From assembly GCA_016936175.1 (NCBI GenBank), contig JAFGPN010000004.1:5726-69725 (forward strand): a stretch of 64,000 bases of DNA. Direction: 5' to 3'. How positions within the stretch are numbered: the stretch's first letter is position 1; every line of letters begins with the position of its first letter. Below are positions 7,810-55,260 of this stretch, piece by piece. The translations under genes were made by a program, and so were the position numbers. The notes below the pieces were generated by a model, which saw nothing but the letters and a program-made list of their open reading frames with translations, ran no database searches and was not told the DNA's origin. This stretch comes from Patescibacteria group bacterium. Lineage in GTDB: Bacteria > Patescibacteriota > Kazan-3B-28 > UBA10110.

Positions 7810-7925
7810 ACAGCCTATTATCGCACAGCTACGAATCAGGTATAATCAGGTTATATTTGTCATTCCCGGGTCGTCCCTGGCCGCACCCGAGGCGTAGCCG
7901 CGGGCAGGCTAATGGCAGTACCATT

Positions 7926-8195
7926 ATGTACTTTGTGTATATCATACGGAGTGCGACAACGAGGCGGCACTATGTGGGGCTGACTGCTGATGTTTGCAAA
8001 AGATTGGCTGCTCACAATTCTGGAACCACCAGACCAACTATCAGCGGACGCCCATGGTCGCTAATACATCAGGAAGAATTCAATACTAGGACAGAAGCCC
8101 GAGAACGAGAAAAGTATCTAAAAAGTTATGGTGGCGCCGGTGAGAAACAGGCTATAATCAGGGCGTCCGCTGACAATTATTCCCGGGTCGTCTAA
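7926..8195 (+). CDS. GIY-YIG nuclease family protein (small, stand-alone)
   Basis: MYFVYIIRS...HYVGLT...RLAAHNSG...EAREREKYLK is a GIY-YIG-type fold pattern. I moved the start to ATG 7926, because the track start at 7794 overlaps rarA. The 3' end overlaps the first 15 nt of tRNA-Gln. Confidence 0.7.
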   Translation: MYFVYIIRSATTRRHYVGLTADVCKRLAAHNSGTTRPTISGRPWSLIHQEEFNTRTEAREREKYLKSYGGAGEKQAIIRASADNYSRVV

Positions 8196-8254
8196 GGGCA
8201 GGACACTTGGTTTTGGTCCAAGGAATCGGGGTTCAAATCCCTGCCCGGGAGCCA
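8181..8254 (+). tRNA. tRNA-Gln (anticodon UUG), CCA encoded
   Basis: Manual cloverleaf. The acceptor stem tcccggg/cccggga has 7 perfect bp. D arm is gtc-taagggcag-gac, the anticodon arm is cttgg-ttTTGgt-ccaag, and the T arm is cgggg-ttcaaat-ccctg. Discriminator g is followed by cca. Total length 74 nt. Confidence 0.9.
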
Positions 8255-12936: not shown

Positions 12937-13351
12937 CTTGTCCCCGGGTTTAACCCGGGGACCCAGCAAAAACAAGAAAATGGCTGGCTATCTCTACATC
13001 CTTTCCAATCAGAAGAATGGCACATTATACATTGGCGCCACCTCCGATCTTCAAAAAAGAATTTGGGAACACAAAAACAAATTTGTTCCAGGGTTCAGTA
13101 ACCAATATAAATTATTCAAACTGGTCTACTACGAACAATTCGAAGACGTGCTATCAGCCAGAGCTCGCGAACGAACACTAAAGAAATGGAATCGTGATTG
13201 GAAAATAAAACTTATAGAAACACAGAATCCAAACTGGAAAGATCTATATCAATCAATTATTTAATTCTTTCTCGCCTTCGGGCTAGACCCGGAGGCCCAG
13301 AAAAAATAATTTATTTGCTGTCTGGGTCCCCGGATTAAATCCGAGGACAAG
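12937..13351 (+). mobile_element. GIY-YIG gene cassette bracketed by 30-nt palindromic units in inverted orientation
   Basis: The left unit cttgtccccgggtttaacccggggacccag (12937-12966) matches the reverse complement of the right unit (13322-13351) at 27 of 30 nt. A third, related unit lies at 13271-13300. Confidence 0.45.
12980..13264 (+). CDS. GIY-YIG nuclease family protein (small, stand-alone)
   Basis: MAGYLYILSNQKNGTLYIGATSDLQKRIWEH...ARERTLKKW shows GIY...YIG plus a conserved R/E pattern. The start was moved to ATG 12980. Confidence 0.75.
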   Translation: MAGYLYILSNQKNGTLYIGATSDLQKRIWEHKNKFVPGFSNQYKLFKLVYYEQFEDVLSARARERTLKKWNRDWKIKLIETQNPNWKDLYQSII

Positions 13352-15155: not shown

Positions 15156-15572
15156 CTACCACTCAGAAGCCAAGGAAAGTAGCTCGTTTTGAATACTACG
15201 GAAAAAATCCTGGTCTTCTTTATATGTCAGCTTCTCTGCCACCTGAGCAATCGGTACCCATCTGCACTTCAGTATCTCCATGCTCGGTGTTAAGGGCTGA
15301 TTGGCGGCCCGAAACAAAAAATAGTAGATGGTCATAAATTTGTTCTTATCCCCAGACATTCGGGAATAAGATGGATAAGATTTAACATAGTTCAGATTAT
15401 CTGGCTCTATCCCCGCCTCCTCGCCGATTTCTCTAAGGGCGGCCTCGAGATACTCTTCTCCCGGTTCTACCGTGCCTTTGGGCAGTTGCCAACTGTGGGT
15501 ATGAGTAAAAACGAGGACGACCTCGCCCACCTCGTTAACGATTACCCCACCGGCTGATTCTTTTTTAGTCAT
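15156..15572 (-). CDS. NUDIX hydrolase
   Basis: Nudix box GTVEPGEEYLEAALREIGEEAGI. The start was moved to ATG 15572, giving an 8-nt overlap with the cysS stop. Confidence 0.8.
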   Translation of the reverse strand: MTKKESAGGVIVNEVGEVVLVFTHTHSWQLPKGTVEPGEEYLEAALREIGEEAGIEPDNLNYVKSYPSYSRMSGDKNKFMTIYYFLFRAANQPLTPSMEILKCRWVPIAQVAEKLTYKEDQDFFRSIQNELLSLASEW

Positions 15573-17022
15573 TGGTCGATATCCTTGGCCCCCGATTGGT
15601 ATCCTCCACCACAAAACCCAGCTTAGCTATTCTATCGCGCAGTTTATCTGATCTTTGCCAATCTTTGGCCTTCCGAGCCTTTTCTCGCTCTGATACCAGC
15701 TTTTTTACTTCCGCCGGAATCGCTGACGGCTTGTGGTCTTTTAACCCCAATCCTAAAACTTTATCAAAATCCAGCAAAGTTGCCTGTTTGTCCGACAACG
15801 ATTTTTTCGATTTTAACAGTTCCCAAACTACCGTCATTGCCTTTGGCATATTCAAATCATCATTTATCGCCGCCAAAAATCTTTTCTTATATGTCGTGTC
15901 CACTTTCCCTTTGTCATTCCCGCGCCATTCGGCCTCGAGCTCATGGCCGAGAGGAAGGCGGGAATCCATTTTTGTTTTCTGGCTGGATCTCCGGGTCAAG
16001 CCCGAGGATGATGGGAGGGACACAGCAAATACTGCTCGTAATTTATTCAATGAATTCTGTGCGCCTACCAGCGCTGACTTAGAAAAACCTAACTTTTGTC
16101 GATAGTGACCAGAAATCGCCAAATACCGGAATACCATTGGTTCGATTCCCTGCCCCGCTAAATCAGTTAGGGTGTAGAAATTGCCGGCACTCTTGGCCAT
16201 CTTGGCACCATTCACTACCATAAACGCATTGTGGAACCAATAATGCGCTAACGGCTTACCGTACGCCGCCTCGCTTTGAGCAATCTCATTGTTGTGATGA
16301 GTGGCGATGTGATCTTCACCACCCGTATGAATATCAAACGGCTGGCCCAGCTCTTTGGTAGAAATTGCCGAACACTCAATGTGCCAACCCGGATATCCCA
16401 CTCCCCAAGGAGATTTCCACTCCTGTTGCCGTTTTTGCATCCCGGAGAACTTCCATAAAGCAAAGTCGGTTTCTCGTTTCTTATATGGACTGTGCCATAC
16501 TCGCGCCTTACCGGCACCCACTCCACCTAGTCTGCCATAGTTTTTAAATTTGGCCGTATCAAAATAGATTCCATCGGAAGTTTTGTAGGTATAGCCTCTT
16601 TTTTCCAGCTGCTTAATTAATTCGATCTGTTCTTTAATATATTTGCTGGCCCACGCAAATTTATTTGGTAACTCAATGTTTAAAGCTTTTAAATCTCTAA
16701 TGAATTGTTCAGTATAAAATTTGGTAATCTCTTTCGCAGTTTTGCCAGTTTTCTTCGCTTCGCGCTCAATCTTGTCTTCGCCAGTATCGGCATCCGAGGT
16801 TAAATGGCCAACATCGGTGATATTCATCACCTGACGAACTTTGTATCCGTTGTATCCCAACACTCGCCGCAAGATGTCTTCCGCTAAATATGCCCGCAGA
16901 TTGCCGATATGCGCATACTGATAAACAGTTGGTCCGCAGGTATATACAGAAACCTGACCGCGTTTTATCGGTTTAAACTCCTGTTTCTTCCGCCCCAATG
17001 TGTTGAAAAGTTTTAATCCCAT
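15565..17022 (-). CDS. cysS: cysteine--tRNA ligase, carrying an in-frame repeat insertion
   Basis: 485 aa with HIGN, a KMAKS loop and a DALR-like C-terminus. See the repeat at 15913-16013. Confidence 0.92.
   Translation of the reverse strand: MGLKLFNTLGRKKQEFKPIKRGQVSVYTCGPTVYQYAHIGNLRAYLAEDILRRVLGYNGYKVRQVMNITDVGHLTSDADTGEDKIEREAKKTGKTAKEITKFYTEQFIRDLKALNIELPNKFAWASKYIKEQIELIKQLEKRGYTYKTSDGIYFDTAKFKNYGRLGGVGAGKARVWHSPYKKRETDFALWKFSGMQKRQQEWKSPWGVGYPGWHIECSAISTKELGQPFDIHTGGEDHIATHHNNEIAQSEAAYGKPLAHYWFHNAFMVVNGAKMAKSAGNFYTLTDLAGQGIEPMVFRYLAISGHYRQKLGFSKSALVGAQNSLNKLRAVFAVSLPSSSGLTRRSSQKTKMDSRLPLGHELEAEWRGNDKGKVDTTYKKRFLAAINDDLNMPKAMTVVWELLKSKKSLSDKQATLLDFDKVLGLGLKDHKPSAIPAEVKKLVSEREKARKAKDWQRSDKLRDRIAKLGFVVEDTNRGPRISTND
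15913..16013 (+). repeat. two-unit palindromic element inserted in-frame in cysS
   Basis: Positions 15913-15966 are identical over 54 nt to the intergenic copy at 17034-17087. They are followed by a second hairpin unit (ggatctccgggtcaagcccgaggat). The element encodes ...SSGLTRRSSQKTKMDSRLPLGHELEAEWRGND... Confidence 0.85.
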
Positions 17023-17033
17023 ATTTTTCTCTC

Positions 17034-17160
17034 GTCATTCCCGCGCCATTCGGCCTCGAGCTCATGGCCGAGAGGAAGGCGGGAATCTAGAAAACAAAAT
17101 GATTTTTATTTTTTTATCTGGATCCCCGATGTCGAGTCGCTCTGCGCTCGGCTCGAGGAC
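17034..17160 (+). repeat. two-unit palindromic element, intergenic copy upstream of cysS
   Basis: The 54-nt unit gtcattcccgcgccattcggcctcgagctcatggccgagaggaaggcgggaatc is followed by an AT-rich spacer and then a ctggatcccc... hairpin unit. Confidence 0.85.
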
Positions 17161-17194
17161 AACTATTGCATCACTGGATACAATAGTTGGCTTA

Positions 17195-18100
17195 TTAAGT
17201 GGCACTTAAGTGAGGTTTAAATGATTTAACCTGATAATCAACCAAGTAGGCGCCAATCAACACTCCAAACCCACCTAATATATTATGCAGGGTTAACTGC
17301 TCGCCCAAAAACACAACGGCCAAGATAGCGATCTGAAACAGCATCGTATTTTGGAATATAGCGGCCTCCAGCGCCTGTAATTTGTCTAAGCAAGAGCTCC
17401 ACATCATCCCGGCAAAACCAAAGATAATACCAGTTACTAACACCGAAAGTCCAATCTGCCACTGACCTAAAACTGCAATATCCCCACCGCTCAAAAGCCC
17501 GATTGGCAGTAACACAGCCAGACCGATCCCGTTAGTAATCAGAGAGGTGGAGATGGTCTCGTCACCCGGCCTCCGCATAACAAACCTGGTCATTACCGTA
17601 TTAAGAGCGTAACTGGCCTCGGACGCCAATAACATTAACATGCCAAACATGGAACCACCAGTTACTTCGCCACCCAAAAATATATAAACGCTTATGCCAG
17701 CTACCAATACTCCAAACAACTGTTGAACCCTGGGACGTTCTTTTAAAATAATTGCCCCCAACACCATTACTAGCACCGAGCTCATCCCGGCAAACAAACC
17801 AGCCGTAGCACCGGTAACATATTTTAGCCCCATCACCGCAAACAGTGGCGCCGCTACATACCCCATCAATCCAACCAATACTAACGCTCGAATCTCGTAA
17901 GTTTTAAAGTTCCACTTTACCTTCTGACGATGGATAAGATAGTAGGTTAGAACGGACAAAAACGAGACAACCTGAATACTTGCGATTAGCACCATCGGCG
18001 AAACCAGCCCCAATCCCAATTTGATAATGATTTTAGAAGCCGACCACAAAAAAGTAACAAACAAAGCCTGGACTAACCAAATGGATCGCGTAGACTTCAT
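17195..18100 (-). CDS. EamA/DMT-family transporter
   Basis: 301 aa with 10 predicted TM helices in two EamA-like halves. Confidence 0.7.
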   Translation of the reverse strand: MKSTRSIWLVQALFVTFLWSASKIIIKLGLGLVSPMVLIASIQVVSFLSVLTYYLIHRQKVKWNFKTYEIRALVLVGLMGYVAAPLFAVMGLKYVTGATAGLFAGMSSVLVMVLGAIILKERPRVQQLFGVLVAGISVYIFLGGEVTGGSMFGMLMLLASEASYALNTVMTRFVMRRPGDETISTSLITNGIGLAVLLPIGLLSGGDIAVLGQWQIGLSVLVTGIIFGFAGMMWSSCLDKLQALEAAIFQNTMLFQIAILAVVFLGEQLTLHNILGGFGVLIGAYLVDYQVKSFKPHLSAT

Positions 18101-24480: not shown

Positions 24481-25482
24481 TCATAATACCACAGACTCCC
24501 CGGCCAACCACCTCAACCGTTGAGTAATTTTTCGCCCGCTCACATGTGCCAGATACCCCAAATATGATGGCATCGCTTTGACTACAGTGCCCAAATTGCC
24601 CACCGTCATCTCCCGCGAAATCCTCCCACATATTCGTTTGACTGTTTTCCTCCTCGGCAGGTTGTAGTGGGGCAGAGCGTTGTATCCTATAAAATCTATA
24701 CCCCAAGAGAGTTTGCGTAAGATGAGCTTGTCGGGGTGGAGCTGCAACTTCAGCTCGGATTTCAGAAAATGAGCTATCTCCACAAAATATCCCATCAACT
24801 CACCGGGACCGTCTGCTAACAATGTAAAATCATCGGCATAACGGAGATAGCGCTTAGCTCGAAGCCGATGCTTAGCAAACTTGTCCAACGGATCGAGATA
24901 AACATTGGCGAATAACTGGGATGTCAGATTCCCCAACGGCATCCCTGTGCCACCCGTCTTGTCATTCCCGCTTAGGCGGGAATCCAGGCAACCGAAGCTA
25001 CCAATGATATTTTCCAATAGCCCCAATAATCGCTCATCAGCAATACGGGTTTGCAACAATTCCATCAGCACCTTGTGGTCTACACTATCGAAAAACTTAC
25101 GAATGTCTAACTCCAACGCCCAACAGGGGCTGGTATAGTTTTTACTCACCTTCCGAGCCATCTCTGCCAGTCGGAAAAATCCTTTGTGCGTTCCCTTGTT
25201 CTTCCGGCAAGAATAGCTGTCAAATATAAAGGTTTTATCAAAAGCCGAATGCAGGATACGATAGATGGCATGGTGAAGCAGTCGGTCATGGACAGACGCC
25301 TTACTGATCAGTCGGGGCTTGGGGTCGGAGATGCGGAACTGTTGGTAACCACCATGGCGATACGTACCATCTACCAGCTCTTCGTGCAGGGCAAATATGT
25401 TATCTTCAAGATGGAGTTCAAACGCTTGGACATCCGACTTACTCCGTTTCCCTTTCAGAAACTCCGTCCAGGCTAAGAACAA
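24481..25482 (-). CDS. DGR-type reverse transcriptase
   Basis: 333 aa with YADDF (motif 5) and LGNLTSQ, which fits the [ILV]GxxxSQ signature that separates DGR RTs from group II intron and retron RTs. It uses a TTG start. The RT-like sequence EIISLENL continues in frame upstream to a stop at about 25541, with no canonical start in between. Confidence 0.85.
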   Translation of the reverse strand: MFLAWTEFLKGKRSKSDVQAFELHLEDNIFALHEELVDGTYRHGGYQQFRISDPKPRLISKASVHDRLLHHAIYRILHSAFDKTFIFDSYSCRKNKGTHKGFFRLAEMARKVSKNYTSPCWALELDIRKFFDSVDHKVLMELLQTRIADERLLGLLENIIGSFGCLDSRLSGNDKTGGTGMPLGNLTSQLFANVYLDPLDKFAKHRLRAKRYLRYADDFTLLADGPGELMGYFVEIAHFLKSELKLQLHPDKLILRKLSWGIDFIGYNALPHYNLPRRKTVKRICGRISREMTVGNLGTVVKAMPSYLGYLAHVSGRKITQRLRWLAGESVVL

Positions 25483-27714: not shown

Positions 27715-27840
27715 CTGGGTCCCCGTCTTCACGGGGATGACAGAAAAAATGGATTCCTGCCTTCGCAGGAATGACAAGTTGGGGTTCTAGGTCCCCGGGT
27801 CAAGCCCAAGGACAAGGGAGCAAGGTCCGCCAGCTGGCGG
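27715..27840. repeat. cluster of short palindromic hairpin units
   Basis: The units are ctgggtccccgtcttcacggggatgacag, ggattcctgccttcgcaggaatgacaag, ctaggtccccgggtcaagcccaaggacaaggg and ccgccagctggcgg. Confidence 0.8.
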
Positions 27841-53879: not shown

Positions 53880-53976
53880 CGGAGTTTATACTCGCTTGCG
53901 GGTGCAGGAATGACAAATCAATTTTTATGTCTGGATCCCCGTCTCCACGGGGATGACGACGCAGGGTAAACGTCGT
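53880..53976. repeat. cluster of short palindromic hairpin units
   Basis: The units are gcaggaatgacaa, tctggatccccgtctccacggggatgacg and acgacg-cagggtaaa-cgtcgt. Confidence 0.75.
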
Positions 53977-55030: not shown

Positions 55031-55260
55031 TTTGAAAATTATTTATGGTGTCATGCTGAATTTATTTCAGCATCTGGATCCTGAATGAGTTATTTTATAT
55101 GGCCTACGGCAGTAAAGTGTCTCCAGGATGACAAGTGGTAAGTGTGGGGTGTCATCCTGAACGTAGTGAAGGATCTAGTTCCGGCTCACCGGAACGCTAC
55201 GCTAGATTCTTCGGCTAATTGCCTCAGAATGACATGCTTTTATCCGATAAATGCTAACCG
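55031..55260. repeat. cluster of short palindromic hairpin units filling the murF-mraY gap
   Basis: The units are gtcatgctgaa-tttat-ttcagcatc, ggatcctgaa...ccaggatgac, gtcatcctgaacgtagtgaaggatc and gattcttcgg...ctcagaatgac. Confidence 0.8.

Follow-up and report, generated by a model that had tools for sequence, protein, structure and literature searches.

The cysteine--tRNA ligase gene cysS of a Patescibacteria group bacterium (assembly GCA_016936175.1, contig JAFGPN010000004.1, positions 5,726 to 69,725; this whole stretch of 64,000 nucleotides was analysed and is called the window in the following, and all coordinates refer to it unless another locus is named) carries within its reading frame an element of about 101 nt (15912-16013) that consists of two inverted hairpin units around an A-rich spacer. 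Judged by its sequence features, this element is a member of the superfamily of CGTC-tagged repetitive extragenic palindromic (REP) sequences, to which the NTS/dRS3 repeats of Neisseria and the Rickettsia palindromic elements (RPE) RPE-4 and RPE-6 also belong, and not a new kind of system; new are the host phylum and the host gene. In-frame pairs that encode 20-30 residues have already been described for this superfamily. One hairpin of the pair shares 54 identical nucleotides with a hairpin upstream of the gene. It is likely, in our view, that a tail-to-tail pair of CGTC-tagged REPs was acquired long ago and is tolerated in cysS, that a 30-nt palindromic "rider" in the hairpin loop is a recent addition, that gene conversion has equalised the two copies, and that a machinery of the Ssn type is behind these repeats.

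A pair of inverted hairpins inside and upstream of cysS

The gene cysS (15565..17022, minus strand) is an open reading frame (ORF) for 485 amino acids. An exact comparison within the window confirms what a first-pass annotation of the sequence had reported, namely that the 54 nt at 15913-15966 are identical at 54 of 54 positions to those at 17034-17087. A 54-nt match was found in none of 100 dinucleotide-preserving shuffles, no third copy exists in the window at up to three mismatches, and the ungapped similarity between the two copies reaches 63 nt at 94%. The second copy is located in the 172-nt spacer that separates an EamA-family gene (17195..18100) from the start codon of cysS. After both copies come, again as annotated, a spacer rich in A/T and then another hairpin unit on the minus strand that begins with ctggatc (15983-16013 and 17118-17163), and the intragenic copy is indeed open in the frame of cysS, where it reads ..SSGLTRRSSQKTKMDSRLPLGHELEAEWRGND...

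On the sense strand of cysS the insert begins with CATCATCC-TCGGGCTTGACCCGGAG-ATCCAG, continues with the spacer CCAGAAAACAAAAATGG, and ends with ATTCCCGCC...GGCGCGGGAATGAC. Its two units are inverted, with the GTCAT "heads" pointing outward and the CCAG "tails" pointing inward. Unit 2 (15912..15968, plus strand), which contains the 54-mer, has the tag TGTC, an 8-bp stem (ATTCCCGC/GCGGGAAT), the tail CCA, and a loop that is enlarged by the 30-nt palindromic rider CCATTCGGCCTCGAGCTCATGGCCGAGAGG (15925..15954, plus strand), which encodes PLGHELEAEW in the protein. The spacer (15969..15982) is A-rich on the sense strand and encodes ..QKTKM.., and unit 1 (CATCATCCTCGGGCTTGACCCGGAGATCCAG, 15983..16013, minus strand) is inverted relative to unit 2 and has a degenerate tag (CATC) and a bulged stem. 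The same three-part build is found upstream of the gene, where the copy of unit 2 (17033..17089, plus strand, tag CGTC) likewise contains the 30-mer (17046-17075). This copy lies 11 nt upstream of the start codon of cysS and is partnered, across the A/T-rich spacer 17090-17117, by a unit 1' (GTTGTCCTCGAGCCGAGCGCAGAGCGACTCGACATCGGGGATCCAG, 17118..17163, minus strand). A further pair of this build lies at 13273-13351, 3' of a GIY-YIG gene that is described below. [quoted passage not shown]

Folded as single-stranded DNA, the intergenic region gives z = -2.6. The intragenic region alone has weak folding statistics (z = -0.85 and -1.3), which is why fold energy is not used here as evidence for the intragenic copy. 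As for a T-box or another leader RNA upstream of cysS, there was no match in Rfam.

The insert in the CysRS protein

The encoded protein (CysRS) is 100% identical to the NCBI entry "cysteine--tRNA ligase [Patescibacteria group bacterium]" and has its nearest named relatives in candidate division Kazan bacteria. Orthologues match with E values down to 1e-248, the best solved relative is the CysRS structure 3sp1 in the PDB (E 7e-103), and both catalytic motifs, the HIGH-type (HIGN) and the KMSKS-type (KMAKS), are intact. Among 112 aligned orthologues, 79 have 5-6 residues in the loop that separates ..NSLNKLRAVF from KGKV.., and 9 have at least 28, as compared with 38 residues here. The closest insert-free orthologue, P0005, has 452 instead of 485 amino acids and reads ..RAVFDRRTGDGKV.., and the net gain by the insert amounts to 33 residues or 99 nt, by which the roughly 30 additional residues of the first-pass annotation are confirmed and delimited.

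An AlphaFold2 model based on the 112-sequence alignment (mean pLDDT 89, pTM 0.86) has pLDDT values below 50 for residues 340-369, which lie between the helices 315-333 and 376-387. The insert is predicted by this model to be a disordered inter-domain surface loop, in agreement with the surface position that had been considered for it. This loop would join the last helix of the catalytic and stem-contact part to the first helix of the C-terminal helical domain. The insert is presumably translated and kept in CysRS, and its toleration may be understood from its length, which is divisible by three, from the lack of stop codons in it, and from its position in a loop that is short and variable; insertions at other places or with a shift of the frame would be expected to be lethal, and they are not seen.

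Another insert, of about 55 residues and with a zinc-ribbon-like CxxC...CxxC pattern, is present just before KMSKS in the CysRS of P0013, P0024, P0025 and P0028 (alignment columns 314-370). It is unrelated to the hairpin repeats.

Orthologous sites and the age of the insertion

The corresponding loci of six related cysS genes were compared. The two-hairpin element is found at the same codon position in the window and in L001, L002, L005, L006 and L007, with a common build at the DNA level (head-hairpin-CCAG, A-rich spacer, CTGG-hairpin-head), and these five relatives share a homologous spacer (CCAGAAAGGAAAAACAAAAATGG), which is conserved at the nucleotide level in all of them, as well as a homologous 3' flank (AAAGGGAAAGTGGA). 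Their CysRS proteins are about 75-82% identical to that of the window, and the insert-bearing relatives therefore are different species. As related species carry the element at the same position, the insertion in cysS is old by the evidence of these orthologous sites. The cysS genes of L003 and L004 are without insert.

The individual hairpins have diverged between the species. At the position of unit 1 the orthologues read CGTCATCCCCGACTCGATCGGGGATCCAG, and the stem of this unit is CCCC/GGGG in L002 as compared with CCTC/GAGG in L006, with the pairing kept. Unit 2 is in L001, L005 and L006 an empty canonical hairpin, GTCATTCCCGCG-(A/C/T)AG-GCGGGAAT, that lacks the 30-mer, and in L002 and L007 there is the palindrome CCTGCTGTACAGCAGG instead. 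The upstream site is filled in relatives as well. In L006 and L007 it holds a pair (GTCATTCCCGCGAAGGCGGGAATCCAG, an A-rich spacer, and TAGATTC..GGAATGAC) whose end is a few bases away from the ATGGGATTA start that they share with the window, and in L001 one unit alone is found upstream of cysS. The stem of the upstream unit 2 in these relatives is ATTCTGGATC.. (L006/L007) or ATTCCTCC.. (L001). Since the upstream pair is also common to relatives, neither of the two sites has recently been occupied. The recent spread that had been read from the 100% identity of the copies is thus not supported, as relatives carry pairs at both positions and just the rider is new.

In L005 (8961-9200), an additional A within the A-run of the pair's spacer splits cysS into two ORFs of 361 and 123 amino acids. 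Either the assembly contains a homopolymer error here, or a genuine frameshift has occurred at a repeat-derived run that is prone to slippage.

The 30-nt rider

Because L001, L005 and L006 show the hairpin in its empty form, the 54-mer can be dissected into a canonical hairpin and the 30-nt rider. The difference between unit 2 of the window and unit 2 of L001 is exactly these 30 nt, or 10 codons, which come after the 5' stem arm CCCGCG and ahead of the loop AAG. From the comparison of the orthologous sites, the rider is the only recent part of the element in this genome.

The distribution of the rider was assessed with its 23-nt core, in an exact scan of one genome per species, the source contig of the window not being among the representatives. 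There are 75 exact stretches in about 45 assemblies from several phyla; the hosts are many classes of Patescibacteria (including one Kazan genome), Desulfobacteraceae and Desulfatiglandales (Desulfobacterota), Gammaproteobacteria represented by metagenome-assembled genomes, Ignavibacteria, and one planctomycete (Planctomycetota). The full 30-mer is present in 62 of the 75 stretches, and the sequences diverge beyond it. Copy numbers are low, with 1-5 exact-core stretches per recovered genome and 2 in the 64-kb window, and there are almost no diverged variants in the 650 kb of sequence that were covered. Two hits (L031, L050) that are without the flanking bases and in GC-rich sequence are probably chance or coding matches. 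The exact 54-mer occurs also in L043 and L077 and hence is not confined to the two sites at cysS, a restriction that the first-pass annotation had considered.

The rider often sits at the tips of unrelated hairpins, and its flanks form a stem of strict geometry in about 30% of the cases as compared with 3.6% at random places. Five of 76 copies are placed exactly in the centre of another, or diverged, copy of the rider, at a chance rate of 5e-5. Where the rider is found in CGTC hairpins, its junction and orientation are the same in all ten cases (4 genomes), with AAG, CAG or GAG as the remainder of the loop. A constant junction, a position at unrelated hairpin tips and self-nesting together suggest an insertion that is aimed at hairpin tips. 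It may even be, though we consider this a rather doubtful possibility, that the rider represents a minimal DNA unit of its own, mobile or templated, which is put at the apices of hairpins. If so, a trans-acting enzyme on single-stranded hairpin tips, or templated copying, would write the same 30 nt, and it would write them into hairpins even within an essential gene.

Candidates for a carrier of the rider were considered and rejected. An all-against-all clustering of the ORFs of the 75 loci gave no family present in more than four loci that could be a gene travelling with the rider, and the families found in four loci stem from few assemblies only. A phage vector is unlikely, with a single hit in a viral contig collection. 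A literature search for the 30-mer sequence returned unrelated primers only.

Relation to known repeat systems

REPs of the CGTC type consist of a tag (CGTC, TGTC or CCTC), a stem of 8-9 bp that starts with AT, a loop of 4-5 nt, and the tail CCA, and have been classified into the families CGTC-1 to CGTC-4 (Di Nocera, De Gregorio & Rocco 2013, PMC3733652), of which CGTC-1 is equated with dRS3 of Neisseria and RPE-6 of R. conorii and CGTC-4 with RPE-4 (PMC3733652). Intragenic in-frame units and dimers that contribute 20-30 residues are known for these families and are most numerous in R. conorii, and CGTC REPs are said to have no dedicated transposase (PMC3733652). The cysS element has the unpaired tag (TGTC in the intragenic unit at 15912, CGTC in the intergenic one at 17033, and either of these two in further units of the window at 24960, 27715, 27749 and 53931), the AT-starting stem with 8 of 8 bp paired, and the tail (GGGAAT-CCA at 15966-15968, while CCAG predominates among the other units and the intergenic copy has CTA), and like CGTC REPs it forms inverted dimers, the spacers of which are 20-100 bp in that superfamily. 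The in-frame palindrome in an essential gene, in the style of the Rickettsia elements, which had been proposed from the sequence, thus holds also in terms of kinship, as RPE-4 and RPE-6 are of the same superfamily (PMC3733652).

There are also differences to the described CGTC REPs. Their hosts are Proteobacteria, Chlorobi, Bacteroidetes, Spirochaetes and Thermotogae (PMC3733652), whereas the host here belongs to the Patescibacteria; the genes that contain them often act in DNA synthesis or repair (PMC3733652), whereas here cysS is affected; and the pairs here are tail-to-tail, if the tagged end is taken as the head, which is a rare arrangement according to PMC3733652. The loop differs as well, with 34 nt as compared with 4 due to the nested palindrome. 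The nearest precedent for a rider in a hairpin loop are REP units or dimers inside other palindromes, as found in T. roseum, H. neapolitanus and A. variabilis (PMC3733652), but the rider is untagged, has only 30 nt, and is identical across phyla.

In Neisseria, repeats of the NTS form CGTCATTCCCGCGMAVGCGGGAATCYRG are bound as single-stranded DNA and cut a few nucleotides upstream by the nuclease SsnA (Chenal et al. 2025, PMC11893778). The core of the hairpins described here is nearly this consensus, from which the empty site of L001 differs at 2 of 28 positions. The words "in-frame", "intragenic" and "Patescibacteria" do not occur in PMC11893778.

The likeness to RPE-1 that is shown here is functional, in that a palindromic repeat of about 100 nt is present in frame in essential genes and tolerated as a surface peptide. 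RPE-1 are longer palindromic insertions that interrupt genes, and expression in vivo is reported for proteins that bear an N-terminal RPE-1 (PMC3733652), whereas the element in cysS is, by published criteria, of the short CGTC REP class (RPE-4/-6 type) and present as a pair. REPINs and their RAYT proteins share with the present case the inverted arrangement of two hairpin units around a spacer and the presence of the same repeats on both sides of a single-copy gene, but they have a GTAG tag and a tyrosine HUH transposase in place of the CGTC tag and the candidate GIY-YIG nuclease found here.

An Ssn-like nuclease gene between tagged hairpins

A tblastn search with the GIY-YIG protein of L002 located a gene for an Ssn-like single-domain GIY-YIG nuclease (12980..13264, plus strand; 94 amino acids; Pfam GIY-YIG E 9.2e-16) 2.6 kb from the cysS repeat. 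SsnA of N. meningitidis is a single-domain GIY-YIG protein of 94 amino acids in which the exchanges Y6A, Y17A and E64A abolish cleavage (PMC11893778). The length is the same in the protein described here, and the catalytic residues have the same numbers (Y6, Y17, E64), which makes it a putative member of the Ssn family. A search of PDB sequences with this protein gave spurious WD40 repeat matches and weak UPF0213 hits only.

Genes of the ssn type are often flanked by repeats (PMC11893778), and the nuclease gene of the window likewise lies between tagged hairpins, in an arrangement resembling NTS-ssnA-NTS of Neisseria. One hairpin (TTGTCCCCGGGTTTAACCCGGGGACCCAG, 12938..12966, plus strand) is 14 nt upstream of the gene, and a tail-to-tail pair with an A/T spacer is downstream (13273..13351, with 13273-13300 on the plus and 13322-13351 on the minus strand). 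Unlike the NTS, the hairpins beside the nuclease gene do not begin with AT (their stem is CCCCGGG), and the strict search pattern published for Ssn-related motifs (SRM), as such repeats are also called in Neisseria, does not match them. The nuclease homologue of L002 is flanked by hairpins, too. The whole unit (12938-13351) is situated between an ArsR-type helix-turn-helix gene and an SdpI gene; it is present in L002 and absent from L004, where these two genes are 45 nt apart, a difference that points to gain or loss of the unit as a whole. By analogy to the Neisseria system, the nuclease may well act on the repeats.

A second small GIY-YIG ORF (7926-8195, 89 amino acids) ends inside the tRNA-Gln(ttg) gene at 8181-8254. 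Its protein is of a different subfamily, with 28% identity to the Ssn-like protein of L002. The 14 nt around the 5' end of tRNA-Gln (ATTCCCGGGTCGTC) are repeated at 7862-7875, upstream of this ORF, and it looks as if a nuclease cassette has inserted at the tRNA-Gln gene. A tagged sequence at 7859 that had been considered as a repeat beside this GIY-YIG gene is actually the duplicated 5' end of tRNA-Gln.

Other family members and permissive loops

At least 12 units and 3 dimers of the family are present in the 64 kb. A loose scan for a tag plus a hairpin gave 22 hits as compared with 8.7 expected by shuffling, and as about half of these hits are hairpins of a chance type, the count of units rests on inspection. 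Three members form an intergenic cluster (27715..27816, with units at 27715-27743, 27749-27777 and 27787-27816, minus strand), another intergenic one (TCGTCATCCCCGTGGAGACGGGGATCCAG) lies at 53931..53959 (minus strand), and further units are found around 55049-55190.

A second in-frame case is a hairpin (TTGTCATTCCCGCTTAGGCGGGAATCCAG, 24959..24987, plus strand) in a reverse-transcriptase ORF (24481..25482, minus strand; Pfam RVT_1; group-II-intron-like, without an obvious intron), where it encodes ..LDSRLSGND.., and the assumption of an RPE-like phenomenon in this lineage is strengthened by it. At this site most homologues of the reverse transcriptase read IIxSF-EHSPGKGMPLGN, and 12 of 39 other aligned homologues have hairpin-derived inserts of various types at the same site. 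Also the cysS genes have a second loop of this kind: at codons ~160-180, L001, L002, L006 and L007 carry in-frame hairpins of other repeat types (for example GTCCTCCTTCGCCAAGGCTTCGGAGGATC, encoding ..LLRQGFGG..), in the CysRS alignment at residues around 165-175, and in more distant CysRS orthologues the loop that bears the element here contains long inserts of independent origin. Permissive loops are thus either struck again and again or exchange their contents.

The GC skew of the window (1-64000) stays below zero in nearly all 2-kb bins (cumulative -4.35), and for this reason the whole window seems to be on one replication arm.

Why the two copies are identical

As the rider is absent from the orthologous sites, the 54-nt identity goes back to a secondary event of recent date, be it gene conversion or the insertion of the rider into more than one loop. 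In the sequence of events that we favour, the rider would first have inserted into one hairpin of the two, at the junction of its 5' stem arm with the loop, and a short gene-conversion tract between the copies, which have the same orientation and are 1.1 kb apart, would then have equalised the 54 nt of shared homology. Gene conversion is favoured because the rider is a low-copy sequence, with only two copies in 64 kb, and because the upstream unit has a different stem in the relatives, so that the two host hairpins were probably unlike beforehand. As to the machinery, a small Ssn-type GIY-YIG nuclease probably recognises the repeats, which would act as hairpins of single-stranded DNA.

Several points weigh against this explanation. 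Two independent insertions of the rider into canonical hairpins would yield the same 54-mer as gene conversion. In the literature, Ssn is shown to cut beside such hairpins, not to move them. With regard to the assignment of the family, both 54-mers have a loop of 34 nt instead of the 4-5 nt that define it, which is solely due to the rider, and loops of the regular size are present where it is lacking (L001, L005, L006) and in other units of the window (TTAG at 24960, GAAG at 27749). Finally, just one unit of the window (27715-27742) fits the strict published SRM pattern, with 0.16 hits expected, and the 54-mers miss it owing to the rider.

Two independent insertions into hairpins that were already similar, without any gene conversion, are in good accordance with the same junction and orientation in 10 of 10 rider-bearing CGTC hairpins (4 genomes) and with the frequent position of the rider at unrelated hairpin tips, including the 5 self-nested cases among 76, but for a low-copy rider two hits at a distance of 1.1 kb are unlikely, and the differing stem of the upstream unit 2 in the relatives indicates hosts that probably were not identical before; we regard this course of events as somewhat unlikely. 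It is quite improbable that the element or the whole 54-mer was transposed into cysS recently, so that the identity would mark a fresh insertion. The match is exact, and the 54-mers of L043 and L077 indicate that the composite of hairpin and rider can spread as a unit, but at least six related cysS genes already have the pair at the same codon with a homologous spacer and flanks, their upstream site is filled as well, the new part comprises only the 30 nt of the loop, and a target-site duplication is not visible.

Two further explanations would do without a mobile repeat or without an insert in the mature protein. Loop length varies across CysRS and the copies are just 1.1 kb apart, and one could therefore think of an ordinary lineage-specific loop extension, with the intergenic likeness being a local duplication or an assembly artefact. 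The insert is, however, built of two inverted tagged hairpins and a spacer like intergenic copies elsewhere in the window, its stem arms change on both sides and still pair (CCCC/GGGG, CCTC/GAGG), its peptide is poorly conserved between orthologues and disordered in the AlphaFold2 model, it recurs at this position in independently assembled genomes of other species, and the exact 54-mer is present in unrelated assemblies, which together render such an origin very improbable. That the insert is removed before or after translation, as a mini-intron, in an intein-like manner or by programmed bypass, is barely conceivable: nothing direct speaks for it apart from the two stable hairpins that the mRNA would hold and the frameshift in the spacer A-run of L005, whereas 33 residues (99 nt net) are far too few for an intein, the region gives no Rfam match at gathering thresholds (the sole match of the window is a tRNA elsewhere), and the frame is open in every intact orthologue, which matters only if the insert is translated. 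The old pair with a recent rider and subsequent gene conversion thus remains the explanation that we prefer.

Implications

The system of CGTC-tagged REPs, or NTS, and Ssn is extended by these observations to the Patescibacteria, in which repeated selfish DNA is not expected to be cheap because the genomes are very small. In this lineage the repeats are written into essential proteins, with at least two permissive loops of CysRS affected across the orthologues, as well as one of a conserved reverse transcriptase. For annotation this means that peptides such as ..MDSRLRGND.. or ..SSPTRSGIQ.. are here derived from repeats and are not domains. The orthologous series, with its empty loops, differing pairs and one pair that bears the rider, is a natural record of hairpin turnover, and the Ssn-like gene flanked by the same hairpins offers a candidate enzyme-substrate pair that can be tested. 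If the rider proves to be an entity of its own, it would be an unusually small sequence-specific insertion unit.

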